A stretch of 64,000 nucleotides of DNA from Candidatus Palauibacter poriticola (GTDB lineage Bacteria > Gemmatimonadota > Gemmatimonadetes > Palauibacterales > Palauibacteraceae). Position numbers and translations under genes: made by a program. The DNA is taken from assembly GCA_012270965.1 (NCBI GenBank), contig JAAXHJ010000044.1, forward strand, positions 18,311 through 82,310. Direction: 5' to 3'. Of the stretch, positions 1-14,677 are shown one piece after another. Position 1 is the stretch's first letter. The number at the start of each line of letters is the position of its first letter. The notes under the pieces were generated by a model. The model was given only the letters and a program-made list of their open reading frames with translations, did not search any database and was not told where the DNA came from.

Positions 1-1180
1 CCCTGTACTGGACCAGGTACGGCACGTCGAACTCATCGTATTCGACGAACCACGGCGTCTCCCAATCCGGCCAGATCAGATAGTTCTCTTCTGGCGGTTC
101 CAACCGTCCGATGAGCTGGCCGGACGTATCCAGCACCACCCACTCGGCCGAGTTCATCCCCGTACGCAGCAGTAACCAAGTGGTGCCGTCTTCTCCGGCC
201 CGGGCGCTGCGGACTGGCGGAAAAAACCGCGGCTCGCTGAAGGCCTCCTCCACGGCCCGACGATAACGGGCAAGGTCGACACCGGTACTGGCCCTTTGAA
301 CCCAGTCCTCCACTCGCCGGGATAGCCACTCATCGGTGACCCGTATGGGATCGTACGAATAATCACGAACCCAAGCGGTGTCCCCCTCAGCGTCGAACCG
401 GACGACTCGGTAGGTATGGGGGTCAGCCTCGTTCGCCACTTCCCGGTGAACAACCACGAGCCCCAACCCGTATCGCGAAGCCGTCGCCACTGAACGGTCG
501 TATACCGGCCGCACACCGAAATCCCGCCAGCCGGGTCGCCCTTGAATCTCGACTACGAAGGGTAAACCAACGACCGCCGACACGGTGTCGAGACGCGGGT
601 TTTGGTGATCGAGTCGGATCACGTGGTCGGGCCGGCGCGGGTCGGCGACGACCTCGTGGGCGTAACGCTCGGCACGGACGAGCAGGGACCCGTCGCCAAA
701 CATTCCGATCACATCCCAACGTCCGGGCGGCAGAGAGGGATGGCTCCAGATCGGTACCGATCTTGCGTAGCGATACTCCGCATCGAAGAACTGGACGCGC
801 CCGAGGTCCCCATCGGCGACCCAGAGCAACCCATCGTGAAGACCCATGGCGTCCAGCGACTCGAACTCCCCCGGCCCTCCTCCACGACCCCCTATGGAAC
901 CCAGAGGGGCACCGTCCACCGAAAGCACGCGAATGCGGTGTTCAAGCGGTTCCTCTACGAGGATTCTATCGCCATCGACGATCACGTCTCCAACGCTGGA
1001 GAAACCCCTCTCTGCGTCCAAAGCATCGCCAATCGTCGCGCCGCGCTCTAGAATCCACGTTGGCACTTGGCTCCAGACGGCGGCAGGCTCCGCCGCGCCG
1101 AAGGCGTAGAATCCCAGAATCCACCGTATGACGCCTGCCGGTGTCGTGCCTCTCCGCACCCACCTCTTCCTCTTCGTCAT
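1..1180 (-). CDS. Beta-propeller (NHL-like / six-bladed) family protein, paralog of 11217..12401. Start ATG at 1180; the 3' end runs off the window edge.
   Basis: Hand translation of the minus strand from 1180 gives MTKRKRWVRRGTTPAGVIRWILGFYAFGAAEPAAVWSQVPTWILERGATIGDALDAERGFSSVGDVIVDGDRILVEEPLEHRIRVLSVDGAPLGSIGGRGGGPGEFESLDAMGLHDGLLWVADGDLGRVQFFD... with no stop down to at least 600. It is not in the ORF track because it runs off the edge. It shares the GRRGGGPGEF / LWV.D...V.FFD motifs with the 11217..12401 protein. Confidence 0.6.
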   Translation of the reverse strand, partial: MTKRKRWVRRGTTPAGVIRWILGFYAFGAAEPAAVWSQVPTWILERGATIGDALDAERGFSSVGDVIVDGDRILVEEPLEHRIRVLSVDGAPLGSIGGRGGGPGEFESLDAMGLHDGLLWVADGDLGRVQFFDAEYRYARSVPIWSHPSLPPGRWDVIGMFGDGSLLVRAERYAHEVVADPRRPDHVIRLDHQNPRLDTVSAVVGLPFVVEIQGRPGWRDFGVRPVYDRSVATASRYGLGLVVVHREVANEADPHTYRVVRFDAEGDTAWVRDYSYDPIRVTDEWLSRRVEDWVQRASTGVDLARYRRAVEEAFSEPRFFPPVRSARAGEDGTTWLLLRTGMNSAEWVVLDTSGQLIGRLEPPEENYLIWPDWETPWFVEYDEFDVPYLVQYR

Positions 1181-1196
1181 CGGACCCCCGTCGGCC

Positions 1197-1709
1197 TCAA
1201 ATGGTGATTCGCCGAAGGTTCGAACGGATCTCCGCAGCCCGAGAAGGCACGTAGTCTCTTTCAATGATAGCGCCGGTACAGGAGTGACGTCTGACCGCCG
1301 GAGGACTCGCGGCCGGTCGCTCTTCGCGATGCCGCCCGTCAAGAAACCCACTACTCGTCCGGGGGGCGAAACGCGTCTCCGGCGGAGTGACAACCGCATA
1401 GTGTCGCGAGACTCGGCCGTGTGGACCGATGGCCAGGGCGCAATCCCCCACGCCGTTCTCGTCCGTGCTGATGGTGCACTGGTCGTAGGTCGGCCGGTCG
1501 CACGACAGGCCGCCGTTGGTTTTTGCGATGCCGCAGTTCATCCAGGCGTCACGCTTGCGCCCTTCGGCGTTGGGATCGCCCTTCTCAACCTTACACACCG
1601 CGCATGGGGCGGAGGTCGCCTGAGCCGCCGCTGGCTCGGGAGCCGCAGCGTACAAGAGCGGGATCAGTACCACGAGGAACGGGAGCGGGGACAACAATCG
1701 GCGCAGCAT
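1197..1709 (-). CDS. Small secreted cysteine-rich protein (170 aa), paralog of 12398..12895.
   Basis: Signal peptide MLRRLLSPLPFLVVLIPLLYAAAPEPAAAQA, then 8 Cys. The C-terminal block RRHSCTGAIIERDYVPSRAAEIRSNLRRITI aligns with RRRCDGGIIARRYSASEAQAIFASTIRIRI of the 12398..12895 protein. The overlapping plus-strand ORF 1128..1739 is featureless. Confidence 0.5.
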   Translation of the reverse strand: MLRRLLSPLPFLVVLIPLLYAAAPEPAAAQATSAPCAVCKVEKGDPNAEGRKRDAWMNCGIAKTNGGLSCDRPTYDQCTISTDENGVGDCALAIGPHGRVSRHYAVVTPPETRFAPRTSSGFLDGRHREERPAASPPAVRRHSCTGAIIERDYVPSRAAEIRSNLRRITI

Positions 1710-1740
1710 CGTGACGCGTCCTTTCGTCAAGGGTTCTGAC

Positions 1741-2073
1741 CTAACAACCTGATGTGACCGGAATCCGCCAGCGCCACGAGTAGACGACGAGTTCGCTTTC
1801 CTCGAACGTCCGGAGGGCCACCATGATGGGGGCTTGCGACGCGGTGCCGACGAAACCGAACGGGGCGGCAACCAGGCGCTGCGACAGCACGCCACCACCG
1901 GCATCGTAGGTGACGAGGAGCCTCCCGTCGCTCGTGACATCCGCGATCACTTGGAGGAAGCCGGGATCGAGATGGAGGGCGCTCAGGGCGAGCCAGTTCG
2001 GAGGCAGTTCGCCCTCCCCCTCCCCGGTCGGTGGTGGGTCCGGCTGCATGGACGCGACCACCTCTCCGTTCAT
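1741..2073 (-). CDS. C-terminal third of a split propeller paralog. Its ATG overlaps the TGA of the upstream piece (ATGA).
   Basis: MNGEVVASMQPD...LHLDPGFLQV...ESELVVYSWRWR aligns with the contiguous C-terminus of the 12892..13983 protein (..LHLDPGIWN...TELVKYSWERV). Confidence 0.45.
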   Translation of the reverse strand: MNGEVVASMQPDPPPTGEGEGELPPNWLALSALHLDPGFLQVIADVTSDGRLLVTYDAGGGVLSQRLVAAPFGFVGTASQAPIMVALRTFEESELVVYSWRWRIPVTSGC

Positions 2074-2810
2074 CTCATCGCGATCCTCCAGACGGTGTGG
2101 GGCGGATCCCGGAACGCGACGAGCGCATCGGCCTCCGCGACCGCCAGGAAGATGCGGTCCGTCGATGGCCAGAGTGGCGCCACGAACGTCGAACGGGACA
2201 TCCCGCCGTTGCCGTCGGGCACGAAGTGAAGTTCCGTCCCGTCGGACGAGGAGGAGGGCGCGAGGAACCACCAGCCGCCCGGTCCCCGTACGGCCGAGTG
2301 AACCTCCGCCGACGCGGGAGATTCAACCCGCTTGGTGGGCGGAGCGGCCCACGCCATGTGTGACATCGTCCCGTCGGAGTGAACCATCTCGCCCGTGCTT
2401 CGGCCAAGGAAACGGCCACCGACGACCGGTCGGAAAGCGGGCAGCGTTCGGGGCTCCGCGTCCGACCCGTCGTAGAGAAGCACGGTCGGCGCGCGCGCCG
2501 ACCAAGCCAGCAGGCGATCCCCCTCCCTCGAGAGAACGGCACCGCCAACGGTCACGCCGGGCGGCACCCGGTGGGTGCGCATTTGCTCGAGTTCCAAGAC
2601 GGGCTTCTGGCGAGAAGCAGTCGAAGCGCCGGCGAGCCCGGAAGCCGGTGCCGAGAGGAGTGTCCAGAAGCCGGTGATGACCGTCCATGCGTGGACGTCT
2701 CGTCGAAAGCGGTACCAAGCCAACATGGTTTTCGTCTTCCCAAATCCTCGAACTCGGGGGGAACCGGCCAGCGTGTGAAGAAACCTCGATGGGTCGGTTT
2801 GCGGAGACAA
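2070..2810 (-). CDS. N-terminal two-thirds of a split propeller paralog (signal-peptide-like MLAWYRF...ITGFWTLLSAPASGLAGA; alternative start about 2726).
   Basis: VLELEQMRTHRVPPGVTVGGAVLSREGDRLLAWS aligns with SIELTEQSSVTIPDGRLLRGAVLSPSGELIVAWF of the 12892..13983 protein. It ends ...TVWRIAMR*, where the intact paralog continues in frame (RVWRIGGVTDQ...). Confidence 0.5.
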   Translation of the reverse strand: MSPQTDPSRFLHTLAGSPRVRGFGKTKTMLAWYRFRRDVHAWTVITGFWTLLSAPASGLAGASTASRQKPVLELEQMRTHRVPPGVTVGGAVLSREGDRLLAWSARAPTVLLYDGSDAEPRTLPAFRPVVGGRFLGRSTGEMVHSDGTMSHMAWAAPPTKRVESPASAEVHSAVRGPGGWWFLAPSSSSDGTELHFVPDGNGGMSRSTFVAPLWPSTDRIFLAVAEADALVAFRDPPHTVWRIAMR

Positions 2811-3672
2811 GGCGACGAAACGTATGAAGATGGCGCAAATCGACTACTTGTCGGTCGAATCGAATGATCGGACCAAGTCGGGCGGTGGCCCCCCCCCCCG
2901 AAGATTTTCCGAAAGCGAGGCCCAAGACGGGCTGGACATGCCGTACCGTAAACGCCGCGAGCAGCTGATCGGGAGGAATCCCCGGAAGCGCGCCGGGGGT
3001 GCAGCCAGGCCAAGTCCGCACCCTCCGGTTCACCGTTGCGCGACGGATTCCCGTGCGGGCGGTCACGCGCTTCCAGCCCAACCCGGAGCGGCGAAGCTCG
3101 TGCGCCCGGAGAATCGCGAGACCACCCAGCAGTCCGCCAAGGGTCGTCTCGCCTCGGGCGCAAGCCCGGAACTGCTGGAACAGCGTGACGGGAGCACAGC
3201 CGACGGCTTCCGCCAACTCTCTCACGTTGCGCACGGGTCGCGAGGCGGCCTGACGCACGGCATATACGAGAGCGCGGCGAAGAGCTCGGGGAATCTCGGC
3301 TCGTTCGAAAGCCGCCGCCAGGCACAACAGCCCCGACGTGACGCGCACCGCATCAAGCCGGGATGGCAGCCGGGTCCGCAGTGCCGGAAACCAGACAAGC
3401 GCCGATACGCGCACGGCAACCAACAGCTCGGCGACTTTGGGATGGCGGTCGGTCACGAGCACGACCGGCACCCACGGGCGCTCGCGTTCAAGTTTCCCCA
3501 GTAGATCGAGTCTCTCGCGGAGCCGATGTCTCCTGCAGGCAATGATCACGGCTTGGGCATCCCGGGTCCGCGCAACAAGCTCGCCCTCGGAGTCCGCCAC
3601 GTGCACAGCCCGGCCGGCTGCCCTGCCGATCTCCCGAATCTCCCAGGGCGTATCCGCAAGAACCAAAATCAT
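2323..3672 (-). CDS. Transcriptional regulator with a receiver-like N-terminal domain (no phospho-acceptor Asp) and an AraC-type HTH. As given, the ORF reads through a G11 tract and into the propeller gene. The true 3' end is probably near 2844.
   Basis: MILVLADTPWEIREIGRAAGRAVHVADSEGELVARTRDAQAVIIACRR...VPVVLVTD has a receiver fold. ...VRELAEAVGCAPVTLFQQFRACARGETTLGGLLGGLAILRAHELRRSGLGWKRVTARTGIRRATVNRRVRTW is AraC-type. Downstream of about residue 225 the product is low-complexity and overlaps 2070..2810 in another frame. Confidence 0.5.
   Translation of the reverse strand: MILVLADTPWEIREIGRAAGRAVHVADSEGELVARTRDAQAVIIACRRHRLRERLDLLGKLERERPWVPVVLVTDRHPKVAELLVAVRVSALVWFPALRTRLPSRLDAVRVTSGLLCLAAAFERAEIPRALRRALVYAVRQAASRPVRNVRELAEAVGCAPVTLFQQFRACARGETTLGGLLGGLAILRAHELRRSGLGWKRVTARTGIRRATVNRRVRTWPGCTPGALPGIPPDQLLAAFTVRHVQPVLGLAFGKSSGGGATARLGPIIRFDRQVVDLRHLHTFRRLVSANRPIEVSSHAGRFPPSSRIWEDENHVGLVPLSTRRPRMDGHHRLLDTPLGTGFRARRRFDCFSPEARLGTRANAHPPGAARRDRWRCRSLEGGGSPAGLVGARADRASLRRVGRGAPNAARFPTGRRWPFPWPKHGRDGSLRRDDVTHGVGRSAHQAG
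2889..2899. repeat. Homopolymeric tract C11 (G11 on the minus strand).
   Basis: Read directly from the sequence: ggcggtggccccccccccccgaag. Confidence 0.85.
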
Positions 3673-11216: not shown

Positions 11217-12401
11217 TCACTTCAGAATCTCATACTTGACGACATACGAAATGTCCATCTCATCGGTCTCTACGATCCAGCACTCCGTCTCCGTAGCGGA
11301 TACAACGCGCGACGCTGCCGGAAGCCTGACTCTTCCAATCGTTGCCCCACTCCGATCAAGGACGAGCCACTCGGCTTCTCCGCTTCCATCGTCGGCCTGG
11401 CCCAACCACGTCGTCCCATCGCCTCCCGCCAACAGTCGTGTCACTGGCGGAAAGTACCGGCGTGTCTCAAAGAATTCTCTCACAGCGCCCGCGTGGGCCG
11501 CGCGATCGACGACCGAGTTCGACGTGAGCATGTTCTGTATTCGGTCGTCGAAAAAATCCTCGGGCACGCTCCGCGGCCGATATGCTACACTTCGATCGAA
11601 AACTGTGTCTCCAGCTGCTGAAAGGCGTGTAACCTGAAACTCCGGCGTCCCGGCGCCATTCCAACTACGTCGATTCACCACAACCGCCGCGGCTCCATCC
11701 GGTGCCAAGTCGATCAAATCCCCCTGAGGAAGGGGCGTCGACAAAAACATGATCGAGTTCGACTGCAATCCCGCCGTTATCTCGGCAATTTCTCCTTCCC
11801 GCGACAGCACCGCCAACGTGTCACGCACCGCACCGCTTGCATCCGAAACCGGAAGCACGACGAACGGTGTGAGCCCGCGAGCAATCGCGTGACTCCCGGT
11901 CTCGGGATACCCCACGATTCCTCCATCCGCCAAAACCGCCCACGGACCCCAGCTGAACACATCGTACGCCGCTTCAAACGGTTGCGCATACGGTACCGTC
12001 TTCACACCGCCGTTGTCGACATCGAAGAAAGTGACACGCCTTGCATTCCAGTCACTCACCCACAGTTCGGAACTGTACCATCCCATGAGCAGAGGCGCAA
12101 TGAATTCTCCCGGTCCGCCCCCGCGACGCCCAAGAGTCTGGGCGAATCGGCCACGGTGATCGAAAACCACAACGGTCCCGTCCTGTGGTTGCAATATATA
12201 TACGTGATTCTGATCCACCAGAACCGTGCCCACTCTCGTGAGCGCCGACGATGGGTCGTCTACGCTTCCGATCGTCACGCCGCGACGGAGCGACCATTCG
12301 GACACCATGGCTGGCGGGGCGGTGTCCGTCCCACACCCACTCCAGGTCAACCACGCAGCCAGCACGCCCGTCGGCCACCTCATGACCCGGCCGATACTCA
12401 T
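11217..12401 (-). CDS. Propeller-family lipoprotein (NHL-like / six-bladed).
   Basis: Lipoprotein signal ...AAWLTWSGCGTD. GRRGGGPGEF and SSELWVSDWNARRVTFFD motifs. The C-terminus is ...ISYVVKYEILK. The start ATG overlaps the upstream stop (ATGA at 12398-12401). Confidence 0.65.
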   Translation of the reverse strand: MSIGRVMRWPTGVLAAWLTWSGCGTDTAPPAMVSEWSLRRGVTIGSVDDPSSALTRVGTVLVDQNHVYILQPQDGTVVVFDHRGRFAQTLGRRGGGPGEFIAPLLMGWYSSELWVSDWNARRVTFFDVDNGGVKTVPYAQPFEAAYDVFSWGPWAVLADGGIVGYPETGSHAIARGLTPFVVLPVSDASGAVRDTLAVLSREGEIAEITAGLQSNSIMFLSTPLPQGDLIDLAPDGAAAVVVNRRSWNGAGTPEFQVTRLSAAGDTVFDRSVAYRPRSVPEDFFDDRIQNMLTSNSVVDRAAHAGAVREFFETRRYFPPVTRLLAGGDGTTWLGQADDGSGEAEWLVLDRSGATIGRVRLPAASRVVSATETECWIVETDEMDISYVVKYEILK

Positions 12402-12895
12402 ATTCGAATGCGTATCGTGCTGGCAAAAATCGCTTGCGCCTCGCTCGCCGAGTACCGGCGAGCGATGATTCCTCCGTCGCAGCGCCGCCGCATGATCGAG
12501 GCAGGAACCAGATCATTACGGATCATCTCCGCGTACCGCGCGTCCAGGTCCGATCCGTAGACCGCAGGCACGGTACCTACGGAACTCGCGTGTGAATAGC
12601 CGAGGGGCACTGATCCGTCCGTCCCGTCGGGACGAAGTCGCCCATCTAACATTACGACGCTGCCGAGACAGAATTGACCGCCGACCTCGCAACGTTCGCA
12701 CTCCGGCGTCGTACAGTAGTCATCCAGACCCCAGAGTGCGTTGTGGACGCAGTAATTACACTCTACCGCGCTTCCATCGGCCGGTCCGGGGCCGGACGTA
12801 CACCAAAAGCACTGCGCCACTGCGGGTGCTGCGACCCCCGCCCCGGCCAGAATAGCAAGGCCAAGACTCAGCATGACGAATCGTGAGCGTGTCAT
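12398..12895 (-). CDS. Small secreted cysteine-rich protein (165 aa, 9 Cys).
   Basis: Signal peptide MTRSRFVMLSLGLAILAGAGVAAPAVAQ, then CFWCTSGPGPADGSAVECNYCVHN...C.. It is a paralog of 1197..1709. It has ATGA overlaps with both flanking propeller genes. Confidence 0.55.
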   Translation of the reverse strand: MTRSRFVMLSLGLAILAGAGVAAPAVAQCFWCTSGPGPADGSAVECNYCVHNALWGLDDYCTTPECERCEVGGQFCLGSVVMLDGRLRPDGTDGSVPLGYSHASSVGTVPAVYGSDLDARYAEMIRNDLVPASIMRRRCDGGIIARRYSASEAQAIFASTIRIRI

Positions 12896-13983
12896 CGTTC
12901 TTCTCCTGCGCTTCCGGTTGAGTCTGGGACGCGTTCCCAGGAATACTTTACAAGCTCCGTATTATTCAACGTCCGGATGGCCAGTACGACGGGACCGATG
13001 GTAGCACTATCGACGAGCCCAAAGGCGGCGTCGACCGTCGTATATCGTGCGAATCGGCCGTTTGAGTTGAACCAAAGCAACAGCCGCTGGTCCGTCCCCC
13101 GGTGCGCCATGGTTTGAGCATAGCCCGGCCCGATGGCGACGACGGAGGTCGTATTCCAAATCCCTGGATCGAGATGCAAGGACCTGGCGATGTTGTTGTC
13201 GAACCAGTCGCCCGTGACCTGTTGGAACTTCACGGGCGGCTGATCCGTGACGCCGCCAATGCGCCATACGCGAAAGGGATTGAAACTCTGCCACACGAGC
13301 GCGTCGTGTCCGTTAGCGGAGAGTGCGATGCTCCCTGCGTAGGTCGAGTCGGGAATCCAGGCGTCTTGGCCGTCGGGCATTTGGACGCGTGGCGGCGAAA
13401 GGTCCGAGGACGCAAGAAACCAGCCGGACGTGGTCCGCGCTGCAATATCGGCTTTCGCTGCGCCGGGCAGACTCTGTCGGGCAACTACGTTTCCCGCCGT
13501 GTCCGCCACAACCAGGTCAGCTCCGCCGCCATCGATGATTTCGAGCGTGGTCGCATCCAAGAACGCGACGCCGATCGCTTGCCCGACATGCTGGGTAAGT
13601 ACGTCCTTGCCAATGGATCCACGGTAAACGCGGATCCCCGGAGTACTATTGAACCAAGCAACGATCAACTCTCCCGAAGGTGACAAGACCGCGCCCCGTA
13701 GCAGTCTCCCGTCTGGTATCGTGACGCTCGACTGCTCGGTCAACTCGATTGAAGGGCGTGACCACCGAGCATCACTTGACTGCCCGAGTTCCGTCGCAGG
13801 TGACACGGTTCCGTGTGGGGTCGGTTCGGCGGATGAGCGGCCGGGATGGGCGAGGAGTAGCAGGGCAACTGAAAGGATCTTAACGATCTGGCAGCATCGC
13901 CGCCGTCCGCGGACGGGTGGAGCTGTCCCGCCTTCACGGACGATTGATTTCCGCGGTTGAACCCGGCCCGTGTTGTTCCCCAC
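12892..13983 (-). CDS. Secreted propeller-family protein (intact paralog). Proposed GTG start at 13983; the start is uncertain.
   Basis: Signal-peptide-like RGRRRCCQIVKILSVALLLLAHPGRSSAEP. The body is homologous to 2070..2810 plus 1741..2073. The 5' 590 nt of the track ORF (to 14574) is Arg/Ser-rich junk that overlaps the IS remnant. Confidence 0.55.
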   Translation of the reverse strand: MGNNTGRVQPRKSIVREGGTAPPVRGRRRCCQIVKILSVALLLLAHPGRSSAEPTPHGTVSPATELGQSSDARWSRPSIELTEQSSVTIPDGRLLRGAVLSPSGELIVAWFNSTPGIRVYRGSIGKDVLTQHVGQAIGVAFLDATTLEIIDGGGADLVVADTAGNVVARQSLPGAAKADIAARTTSGWFLASSDLSPPRVQMPDGQDAWIPDSTYAGSIALSANGHDALVWQSFNPFRVWRIGGVTDQPPVKFQQVTGDWFDNNIARSLHLDPGIWNTTSVVAIGPGYAQTMAHRGTDQRLLLWFNSNGRFARYTTVDAAFGLVDSATIGPVVLAIRTLNNTELVKYSWERVPDSTGSAGEER

Positions 13984-14032
13984 AACCCCTCTCGCGTGGC
14001 CGGGAGAGGTGGGTGCGCACCGCCGGCCCGCC

Positions 14033-14611
14033 TCAGGCCGCATGGAGGCTCTCGTAGTCGGCCGGCGACTCGTAGCCGAGGGCGGAGTGAAGCCGACGCG
14101 TGTTGTGGAAGCCCTCGATGAAGCCGAAGGCCTCGTGCCGGGCCTCCGACGCCGTGCGTAACGAGCGCCTCCGGACGAGTTCGCACTCGGGCGTCGTGAA
14201 GAAGCTCTCGCACAGCGCGTTGCGGTGCGCGTCGCCGACCGAGCCCATCGACCGGGCGATGCCCGCGCCGCGGCAGCGCTCCCCGTCAAGGCGCCGCAGC
14301 TCCGTCGTCGGGCCGTCGCTTCGGAACCCCTCGTCCACGTCCGCCTGCCCGAGCCAGTTCCGGATCGTCGGCTCCGAGAGCTCGAACTCCCGGATCGGTG
14401 AGCCCGGCCCACAACCGGACCGCGCAAGCTCGACCAGCCGTTCCCGGTACTCCGGCAGGTACCGCCCCGCCCTCGCTGCCACGACGCGCCTCCGTGGTTG
14501 GCCCCATGGGAAGGTGCCGGTGAAACCGGGGCAACTCCAGGGCGGAGCATGGCGGGTTTGAACGACACCCTCACTCTCGTGTGCGATTGGCCTCATGGGA
14601 TGCGCACTCAA
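14033..14611 (-). mobile_element. IS3-family transposase remnant: OrfA HTH fused to the extreme C-terminus of OrfB, with the DDE core deleted.
   Basis: RYLPEYRERLVELARSGCGPGSPIREFELSEPTIRNWLGQADVDEG matches the IS3 OrfA HTH. DAHRNALCESFFTTPECELVRRR...EARHEAFGFIEGFHNTRRLHSALGYESPADYE matches the OrfB C-terminal tail. There is an AT-richer patch at about 14605-14650. Confidence 0.7.
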
Positions 14612-14666: not shown

Positions 14667-14677
14667 CCCCCCCCCCC
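14667..14677. repeat. Homopolymeric tract C11 (G11 on the minus strand).
   Basis: Read directly from the sequence: agtgtacccccccccccaatcc. Confidence 0.85.

Follow-up and report, generated by a model that had tools for sequence, protein, structure and literature searches.

A five-nucleotide tandem duplication splits a propeller-like gene in one of two paralogous A-B-C modules of Candidatus Palauibacter poriticola, a probable young pseudogene

The DNA analysed here (hereafter the window) is a 64,000-nucleotide stretch of the Candidatus Palauibacter poriticola genome (Gemmatimonadota; assembly GCA_012270965.1, contig JAAXHJ010000044.1, positions 18,311 to 82,310), and our subject is A1, a gene for a propeller-like protein that lies in two overlapping pieces at the head of a three-gene module on the minus strand. 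The upstream piece, A1-N (2070..2726, minus; 218 codons), has an N-terminal signal or anchor, covers approximately four of six predicted blades, ends in ...PPHTVWRIAMR-TGA, and matches a public gene-call protein (P0001, 218 aa) exactly. In the preliminary description this piece was drawn as 2070..2810; its end at 2070 stands, whereas its start is likelier to be the ATG at 2726, as in the public calls, than the TTG at 2810. The downstream piece, A1-C (1741..2073, minus; 110 codons), begins ATG-AAC-GGA (MNGEVV), reads MNGEVVASMQPD...WRWRIPVTSGC, includes the stretch MNGEVVASMQPDPPPTGEGEGELPPNWLALSALHLDPGFLQVIADVTSDGR, and covers approximately the last two predicted blades; by inspection it has no signal peptide. 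Downstream of A1 are B1 (1197..1709, minus), which encodes an intact, secreted, Cys-rich protein of 170 aa with a signal peptide, a CxxC motif and four further conserved Cys, and a variable linker before the conserved C-terminal motif, whose last residue is Ile, and C1 (1..1180, minus), which encodes an intact DUF5128/NHL-like six-bladed propeller of 397 aa. Orthologs of B1 were found at 76% and 73% identity over the full length (P0017 and P0018). For C1, 393 codons lie inside the window, the final four codons and the stop fall beyond its edge, and the whole gene is present in the longer locus L001.

A second module of the same order lies at 11.2-14 kb on the same strand. It comprises A2 (12892..14043, minus), the intact paralog of A1, which stays in one frame across ...RVWRIGGVTDQ... 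and starts at either ATG 14043 (the public call, 383 aa) or GTG 13983; B2 (12398..12895, minus), a Cys-rich secreted paralog of 165 aa; and C2 (11217..12401, minus), a DUF5128/NHL-like propeller paralog of 394 aa. The genuine junctions A2/B2 (12892-12895) and B2/C2 (12398-12401) are both ATGA overlaps, and in module 1 spacers of 31 nt and 16 nt precede B1 and C1, respectively. A sweep of all open reading frames (ORFs) in the window with profile hidden Markov models (HMMs) and phmmer found exactly two A-B-C modules, and the repetition of the module at 11.2-14 kb, proposed from the sequence alone, was recovered by tblastn, BLASTP, and HMM searches alike.

Comparison of the two modules also located the break. 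When A2 was searched by tblastn against positions 1700-2850, its residues 28-209 aligned in one frame (28% identity) and its residues 240-325 in a frame shifted by one (36%), with a combined E value of 9e-27, and the A-family profile HMM matched A1-N and A1-C separately (E values of 5.5e-77 and 3.2e-56). The first propeller is indeed interrupted where A2 reads RVWRIGGVTDQ, with ...TVWRIAMR-TGA overlapped by ATG-NGEVV, as the preliminary description had it. C1 and C2 share 31% identity over approximately 390 aa (E value of approximately 1e-43), and B1 and B2 27% over 108 aa (BLASTP E value of 1e-4). Since neither blastn between the modules nor a self-comparison of the whole window detected any DNA similarity between them, their paralogy is visible at the protein level only, and paralogy at the DNA level was rejected; aligning the two A copies, the check that had been proposed for the paralogy, accordingly gave significant homology between the proteins and none between the genes.

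An alignment of 20 B-family sequences confirmed that the Cys-rich proteins correspond at their C-termini. The most conserved part of the family is a C-terminal motif, (V/L)RRxC(D/T)xA(V/I)(I/V)xRxYxxxxAxx(I/M/L)Rxxxxx(I/L)x-I-COOH, with R141, C144, Y153, and the C-terminal Ile unchanged throughout; a further six conserved Cys, including those of a CxxC, lie in the N-terminal domain and bring the total to seven. A and C, both named propellers in the preliminary description, are both propeller-like, but hhalign detected no homology between them (probability of approximately 1%), nor between A and the neighbouring DUF5128 protein D, so that A and C are two different families. The C family and the DUF5128-positive D family are homologous over their full length (hhalign E value of 2e-11 over 349 columns). 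C2 itself matches PF17170 at 27.0 bits (cut-off 22.9) over only approximately 49 residues, and C1 scores 10.6 bits, which is under the cut-off.

The break in A1 coincides with a tandem duplication at 2070..2079 (minus strand), GATGA|GATGA, whose two copies (2079-2075 and 2074-2070) amount to five extra nucleotides. The sequence at the break is GC-GATGA-GATGA-ACGG (the two-copy form is GATGAGATGA), in which the start codon of A1-C (ATG, 2073-2071) and the stop codon of A1-N (TGA, 2072-2070) share bases as ATGA. In a DNA alignment with four orthologous loci (L003-L006), the region measured 84 nt in the orthologs and 89 nt in the window, the difference being a 5-nt gap that falls at GCGATGAGATGAACGG in each of the four. 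Deleting one GATGA gives GCG ATG AAC GGA (A-M-N-G) and a 978-nt ORF of 326 codons that is collinear end to end with the orthologs. A single indel thus accounts for the break and undoing it makes the ORF whole again, as expected of a frameshift pseudogene. The frameshift suspected from the letters alone was therefore real, and its exact form is a 5-nt duplication of GATGA that the four orthologous loci lack. On this reading, a 5-bp tandem duplication converted ...GCG ATG AAC GGA... into ...GC GATGA GATGA ACGGA..., the resulting +2 shift exposed the TGA hidden in ATGAAC as an immediate stop, and the original Met codon, now present twice, put its second copy in the old downstream frame. Because the duplication of GATGA is enough by itself to generate the TGA stop and restore a Met codon, the junction has the look of an ATGA overlap; it is evidently a by-product of the duplication and no evidence of design.

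The relatives of A1 all point to a single polypeptide. A search with the repaired A1 recovered P0001, the exact 218-aa fragment, together with 14 relatives, the closest of which (P0002, 69% identity, from a Tara sample) is uninterrupted across the break, and 11 of 11 full-length relatives read through it as ...VWRI(A/G)x(D/N)G(E/R)(V/I)V..., for example ...PPHTVWRIAMDGEVVASMQPD.... Searched with a family profile, 1.84 billion cluster representatives yielded 1224 matches at E values of 1e-3 or below and 774 at 1e-10 or below; among the matches listed, nearly all are 300-345 aa long and span approximately positions 42-328 of the profile in one stretch. None of the relatives examined (the 11 full-length sequences and the profile matches listed) is split at the A1 site, and some other short or odd A matches represent either fragments or genes with frameshifts of their own, such as P0024, in which the frameshift lies elsewhere, and P0020.

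Neither protein A nor protein B had a Pfam or NCBIfam match at E values of 1 or below. An AlphaFold2 model of an A ortholog (P0005), built from a 14-sequence alignment, is all-beta with approximately 25 strands (mean predicted local distance difference test score [pLDDT] 76.7, predicted template modelling score 0.74), and a Foldseek search with it matched propellers generally. Because the model is all-beta and its structural matches are propellers, the prediction of a six-bladed beta-propeller for protein A is supported. In the model, the break falls in a turn between strands 225-228 (VWRI) and 234-238 (RIVAS), which would leave approximately four blades in A1-N and approximately two in A1-C.

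Age was judged from the repaired A1 and its closest ortholog, for which the ratio of nonsynonymous to synonymous divergence (dN/dS) by the Nei-Gojobori method was 0.39 in the N part and 0.22 in the C part. The dN of the C part to two outgroups was 0.326 and 0.325, and that of the intact ortholog 0.327 and 0.355; G+C content at third codon positions (GC3) was 0.80 in both A1-N and A1-C. Neither dN/dS, nor outgroup dN, nor the ORF itself revealed relaxed constraint, extra stops, or secondary lesions downstream of the break. Given that no decay is detectable there, and with a divergence from the nearest sequenced ortholog of dS approximately 0.5-0.7, the lesion is by these measures evolutionarily recent, having arisen long after the nearest relative diverged.

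We conclude that A1 is probably a young pseudogene, in which a recent 5-bp duplication has most likely abolished function; where the preliminary description had left a pseudogenising frameshift and a translationally re-initiated split gene side by side, the frameshift stands and the evidence favours pseudogenisation over re-initiation. A1-N (218 aa) would be exported by itself, as a partial propeller with approximately four blades. The 110-aa A1-C, if made, has no export signal and would stay in the cytoplasm, and the strain keeps the second, divergent module A2-B2-C2. Family members begin with a charged and hydrophobic leader, and A1-C begins MNGEVV without any hydrophobic leader, which makes a functional split unlikely. 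Ortholog N-termini show no conserved twin-arginine motif (A1 itself has FRRD), from which export of A by Sec, in unfolded form, would follow. The absence of the split from relatives and the decay of other module copies elsewhere point the same way. The lesion, its absence from orthologs, its recurrence in two biosamples and its recent date are shown by the data, whereas the loss of function, though plausible, and the compartment argument are inferred.

Several observations nevertheless weigh against this reading. The argument from signal peptide and compartment rests on inspection of the sequence; the ORF of A1-C is perfect and opens with a real ATG in an ATGA overlap like those of A2/B2 and B2/C2, with a Shine-Dalgarno (SD)-like GGAGGA upstream; and re-initiation is mechanistically possible, with a low dN/dS equally expected from continued function. 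The absence of decay likewise fits a young pseudogene and a functional split alike, and so is evidently no proof that function was lost. The contigs that carry the lesion all share 100% identity and come from one strain in one study, to which any claim of fixation is confined.

The strongest competing explanation is that ribosomes re-initiate at the overlapping ATG after the TGA and that the two fragments reassemble into a six-bladed propeller, which we consider improbable. A coupling context is present, since the ATGA overlap is accompanied by the SD-like GGAGGA (2084..2089, minus) 10 nt upstream of the restart ATG, and the genuine junctions of module 2 share the overlap; however, the ATGA and the ATG follow automatically from duplicating GATGA within ATGAAC. 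The duplex of GGAGGA with a generic anti-SD is worth -9.3 kcal/mol, a value reached at 7.5% of random window positions, and the motif is simply what the conserved W-R-I codons spell; it recurs in the intact orthologs (L004-L006), so that it is no adaptation to the split. The two pieces cover the whole protein, adding only an extra Arg and a repeated Met, and the break is predicted to lie close to the boundary of a blade, where a turn at the surface links two strands; nonetheless, A1-C has no export signal although the family is exported, and the split is absent from every relative examined. Transport of a folded split complex by hitch-hiking on the twin-arginine route was rejected, as A1 has FRRD but no ortholog has a twin arginine. 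The intact downstream ORF with its dN/dS of 0.22 is also what continued function would leave, but it records history before the lesion, because the divergence from the nearest ortholog (dS approximately 0.5-0.7) is far older.

That the gene is continuous and the extra GATGA an error of sequencing or assembly is very unlikely. Every contig that carries the lesion comes from one study and is 100% identical to the others, and frameshifted relatives in metagenome assemblies (P0024, P0020) indicate that such calls are not rare. However, a 5-nt tandem duplication outside a homopolymer is atypical of short-read or consensus error, and the lesion was recovered independently from two biosamples, in both NCBI and ENA assemblies, with the same pair of 218-aa and 110-aa genes called on 4-5 contigs. 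Contigs of SAMN11878273 (8.7 kb aligned) and SAMN11878272 (7.9 kb aligned) match the window at 100% identity, as they do each other over 10.7 kb; an apparent indel between the loci L001 and L002 was discarded, as it was only an offset between the loci and their sequences are 100% identical. Since assemblies of both biosamples show one and the same lesion, a random assembly error is unlikely, and we regard the lesion as apparently real.

Least probable of all, and scarcely credible, is programmed recoding (a -1 or +2 ribosomal frameshift) or phase variation by slipped-strand mispairing of the 5-nt repeat: the required shift, -1 (or +2), would fall exactly on a short direct repeat, a two-copy pentanucleotide could in principle revert by slippage, and a G11 tract lies 165 nt upstream of the gene, but there is no X XXY YYZ heptamer in ...GTC TGG AGG ATC GCG ATG AGA TGA or elsewhere in the last 30 nt ahead of the stop, Rfam gave no hit, and no ortholog has a frameshift or a repeat tract at the site, so that a programmed frameshift was rejected, while known phase-variable tracts have far more than two repeat units.

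The surroundings of both modules have features of their own. Upstream of A1 lies a regulator-like ORF (2323..3672, minus) with a receiver-like domain and a weak helix-turn-helix (HTH), whose first approximately 250 aa are orthologous to a 263-aa protein of relatives (L005) and which here stays open for 449 codons, extending into A1-N. At the expected end of the regulator is the G11 run (2889..2899, minus; a C run on the plus strand); with one G fewer, the regulator would stop at approximately 2846, and the run is possibly a second frameshift or slippage-prone tract in the A1 locus. A second 11-base C/G homopolymer (14667-14677) lies upstream of module 2, in the intergenic space between a purine nucleoside phosphorylase gene and the remnant of an insertion sequence (IS). 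By our own arithmetic, approximately one 11-base G/C run per window is expected from base composition (window G+C of approximately 0.69), and since two such runs are near this chance expectation, they were not treated as a feature of the module. The IS remnant is an IS3-type transposase piece (14033..14611, minus) that keeps the C-terminal end of the integrase core (rve_3 E value of 1.3e-7; rve_2 E value of 3.6e-5), fused to an HTH-like N-terminus; it abuts the 5' end of A2 and is overlapped by the ATG at 14043. GC3 is 0.71-0.80 in module 1 and 0.65-0.67 in module 2, and 0.89-0.93 in neighbouring housekeeping genes (aldehyde dehydrogenase, KatG). The low GC3 of both modules suggests foreign origin, low expression, or relaxed selection.

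Beyond this genome, the order A-(B-C)n-DUF5128-MauE-MauD-like was found in six lineages. Close A relatives in GTDB belong to metagenome-assembled genomes of Gemmatimonadetes and Longimicrobiales, and a scan of genome contigs with a narrow A alignment returned five loci. Module 1 continues beyond the window edge (L001 9999-12363) with a DUF5128 propeller, a MauE homolog, and a membrane-anchored thioredoxin-fold protein with a CQPC motif. The same DUF5128/MauE/thioredoxin trio follows the module in L004-L006 and L008, and a DUF5128 gene lies within the 6-kb flank in L013-L015. The MauE homolog matches PF07291 at 58.8 bits (cut-off 27) and contains a C-A-C (CXC) motif in GCACFG; MauE has been reported to replace DsbB via such a CXC site (bioRxiv 10.64898/2026.03.05.709764). 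For the thioredoxin-fold neighbour, the best NCBIfam match was MauD (TIGR02661), near full length and at 21.9-26.9 bits against a cut-off of 188.6, so that by its sequence it is a CxxC thioredoxin-fold protein and not a MauD equivalog. In the isolate Longimicrobium terrae (L011), A-like (312 aa), B (142 aa), and C (381 aa) proteins are encoded beside a DegP-like protease and a two-component system. The MauE pair is absent beside module 2 and beside the Longimicrobium terrae module.

The composition of the module varies among genomes. On a soil Gemmatimonadota-like contig (L009 9111-10913), four tandem B genes (123-126 aa, each with eight Cys) lie between A and C, which suggests that B is a variable, amplifiable component. 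Module copies also evidently decay repeatedly and independently in other genomes. At L016 5788-7200, A has a deletion of approximately 100 codons together with frame changes, and the N-terminus of B is fused to the C-terminus of C; at L008 9419-10680, the first C copy is split over two frames. Literature searches on DUF5128, and on MauE together with a six-bladed beta-propeller, returned no paper.

With low confidence, we propose by analogy that B could be oxidatively folded by the adjacent pair of MauE (DsbB-like) and MauD-like proteins and bound through its C-terminal motif by the exported or anchored propellers A and C, the three forming an extracytoplasmic assembly in the envelope. Against this proposal, the argument is one of analogy, neither A nor B matches a curated family, and the AlphaFold2 model of B (pLDDT 54) was too poor for a fold search; furthermore, the MauE pair beyond the window edge may serve a general disulfide pathway. 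A bolder version, in which the module would be an undescribed extracytoplasmic complex whose propellers hold a disulfide-rich or cross-linked B, much as in the design of quinoprotein amine dehydrogenase, and in which the split A1 would still work by re-initiation and fragment complementation, is again drawn by analogy and is improbable. The A family, with its more than 1200 cluster representatives, and the B family both lie outside Pfam and NCBIfam, and with DUF5128-type propellers they form a conserved module of Gemmatimonadota, one that duplicates and decays. The A-B-C module is therefore a reasonable target for functional work, to which the split of A1 adds one data point, namely that module copies are dispensable.

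Four known systems offer comparisons. The module resembles methylamine dehydrogenase and its MauE/MauD partners in bringing together a CXC MauE homolog, a CxxC thioredoxin, propeller genes, and a small Cys-rich exported protein. However, A and B match neither MauB nor MauA, the MauD match is far under its cut-off, and no MauG was found, so that the resemblance is architectural only. With respect to DUF5128 (PF17170)/NHL-type propellers, A shows neither a sequence match nor profile-profile similarity to C or D, and C1 itself falls under the family cut-off. The junction in A1 shares with ATGA-coupled genes, which are translated by termination-reinitiation, the overlap and a purine-rich SD-like motif, but it lies inside one domain, is unconserved in relatives, and is itself a product of the duplication. 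The closest counterpart is the frameshift pseudogene that arises by short tandem duplication through replication slippage, of which A1 has the single small duplication of a length that is not a multiple of three, the immediate stop, the intact orthologs, and the restorable ORF. Unlike in ordinary frameshift pseudogenes, the lesion in A1 leaves a start codon overlapping the stop, its pieces cover the whole protein, and there are no secondary lesions. The split of A1 is thus an ordinary event and a textbook case of a short tandem duplication that mimics a natural gene junction, and A1-N and A1-C should be annotated as one frameshifted gene rather than as two proteins.

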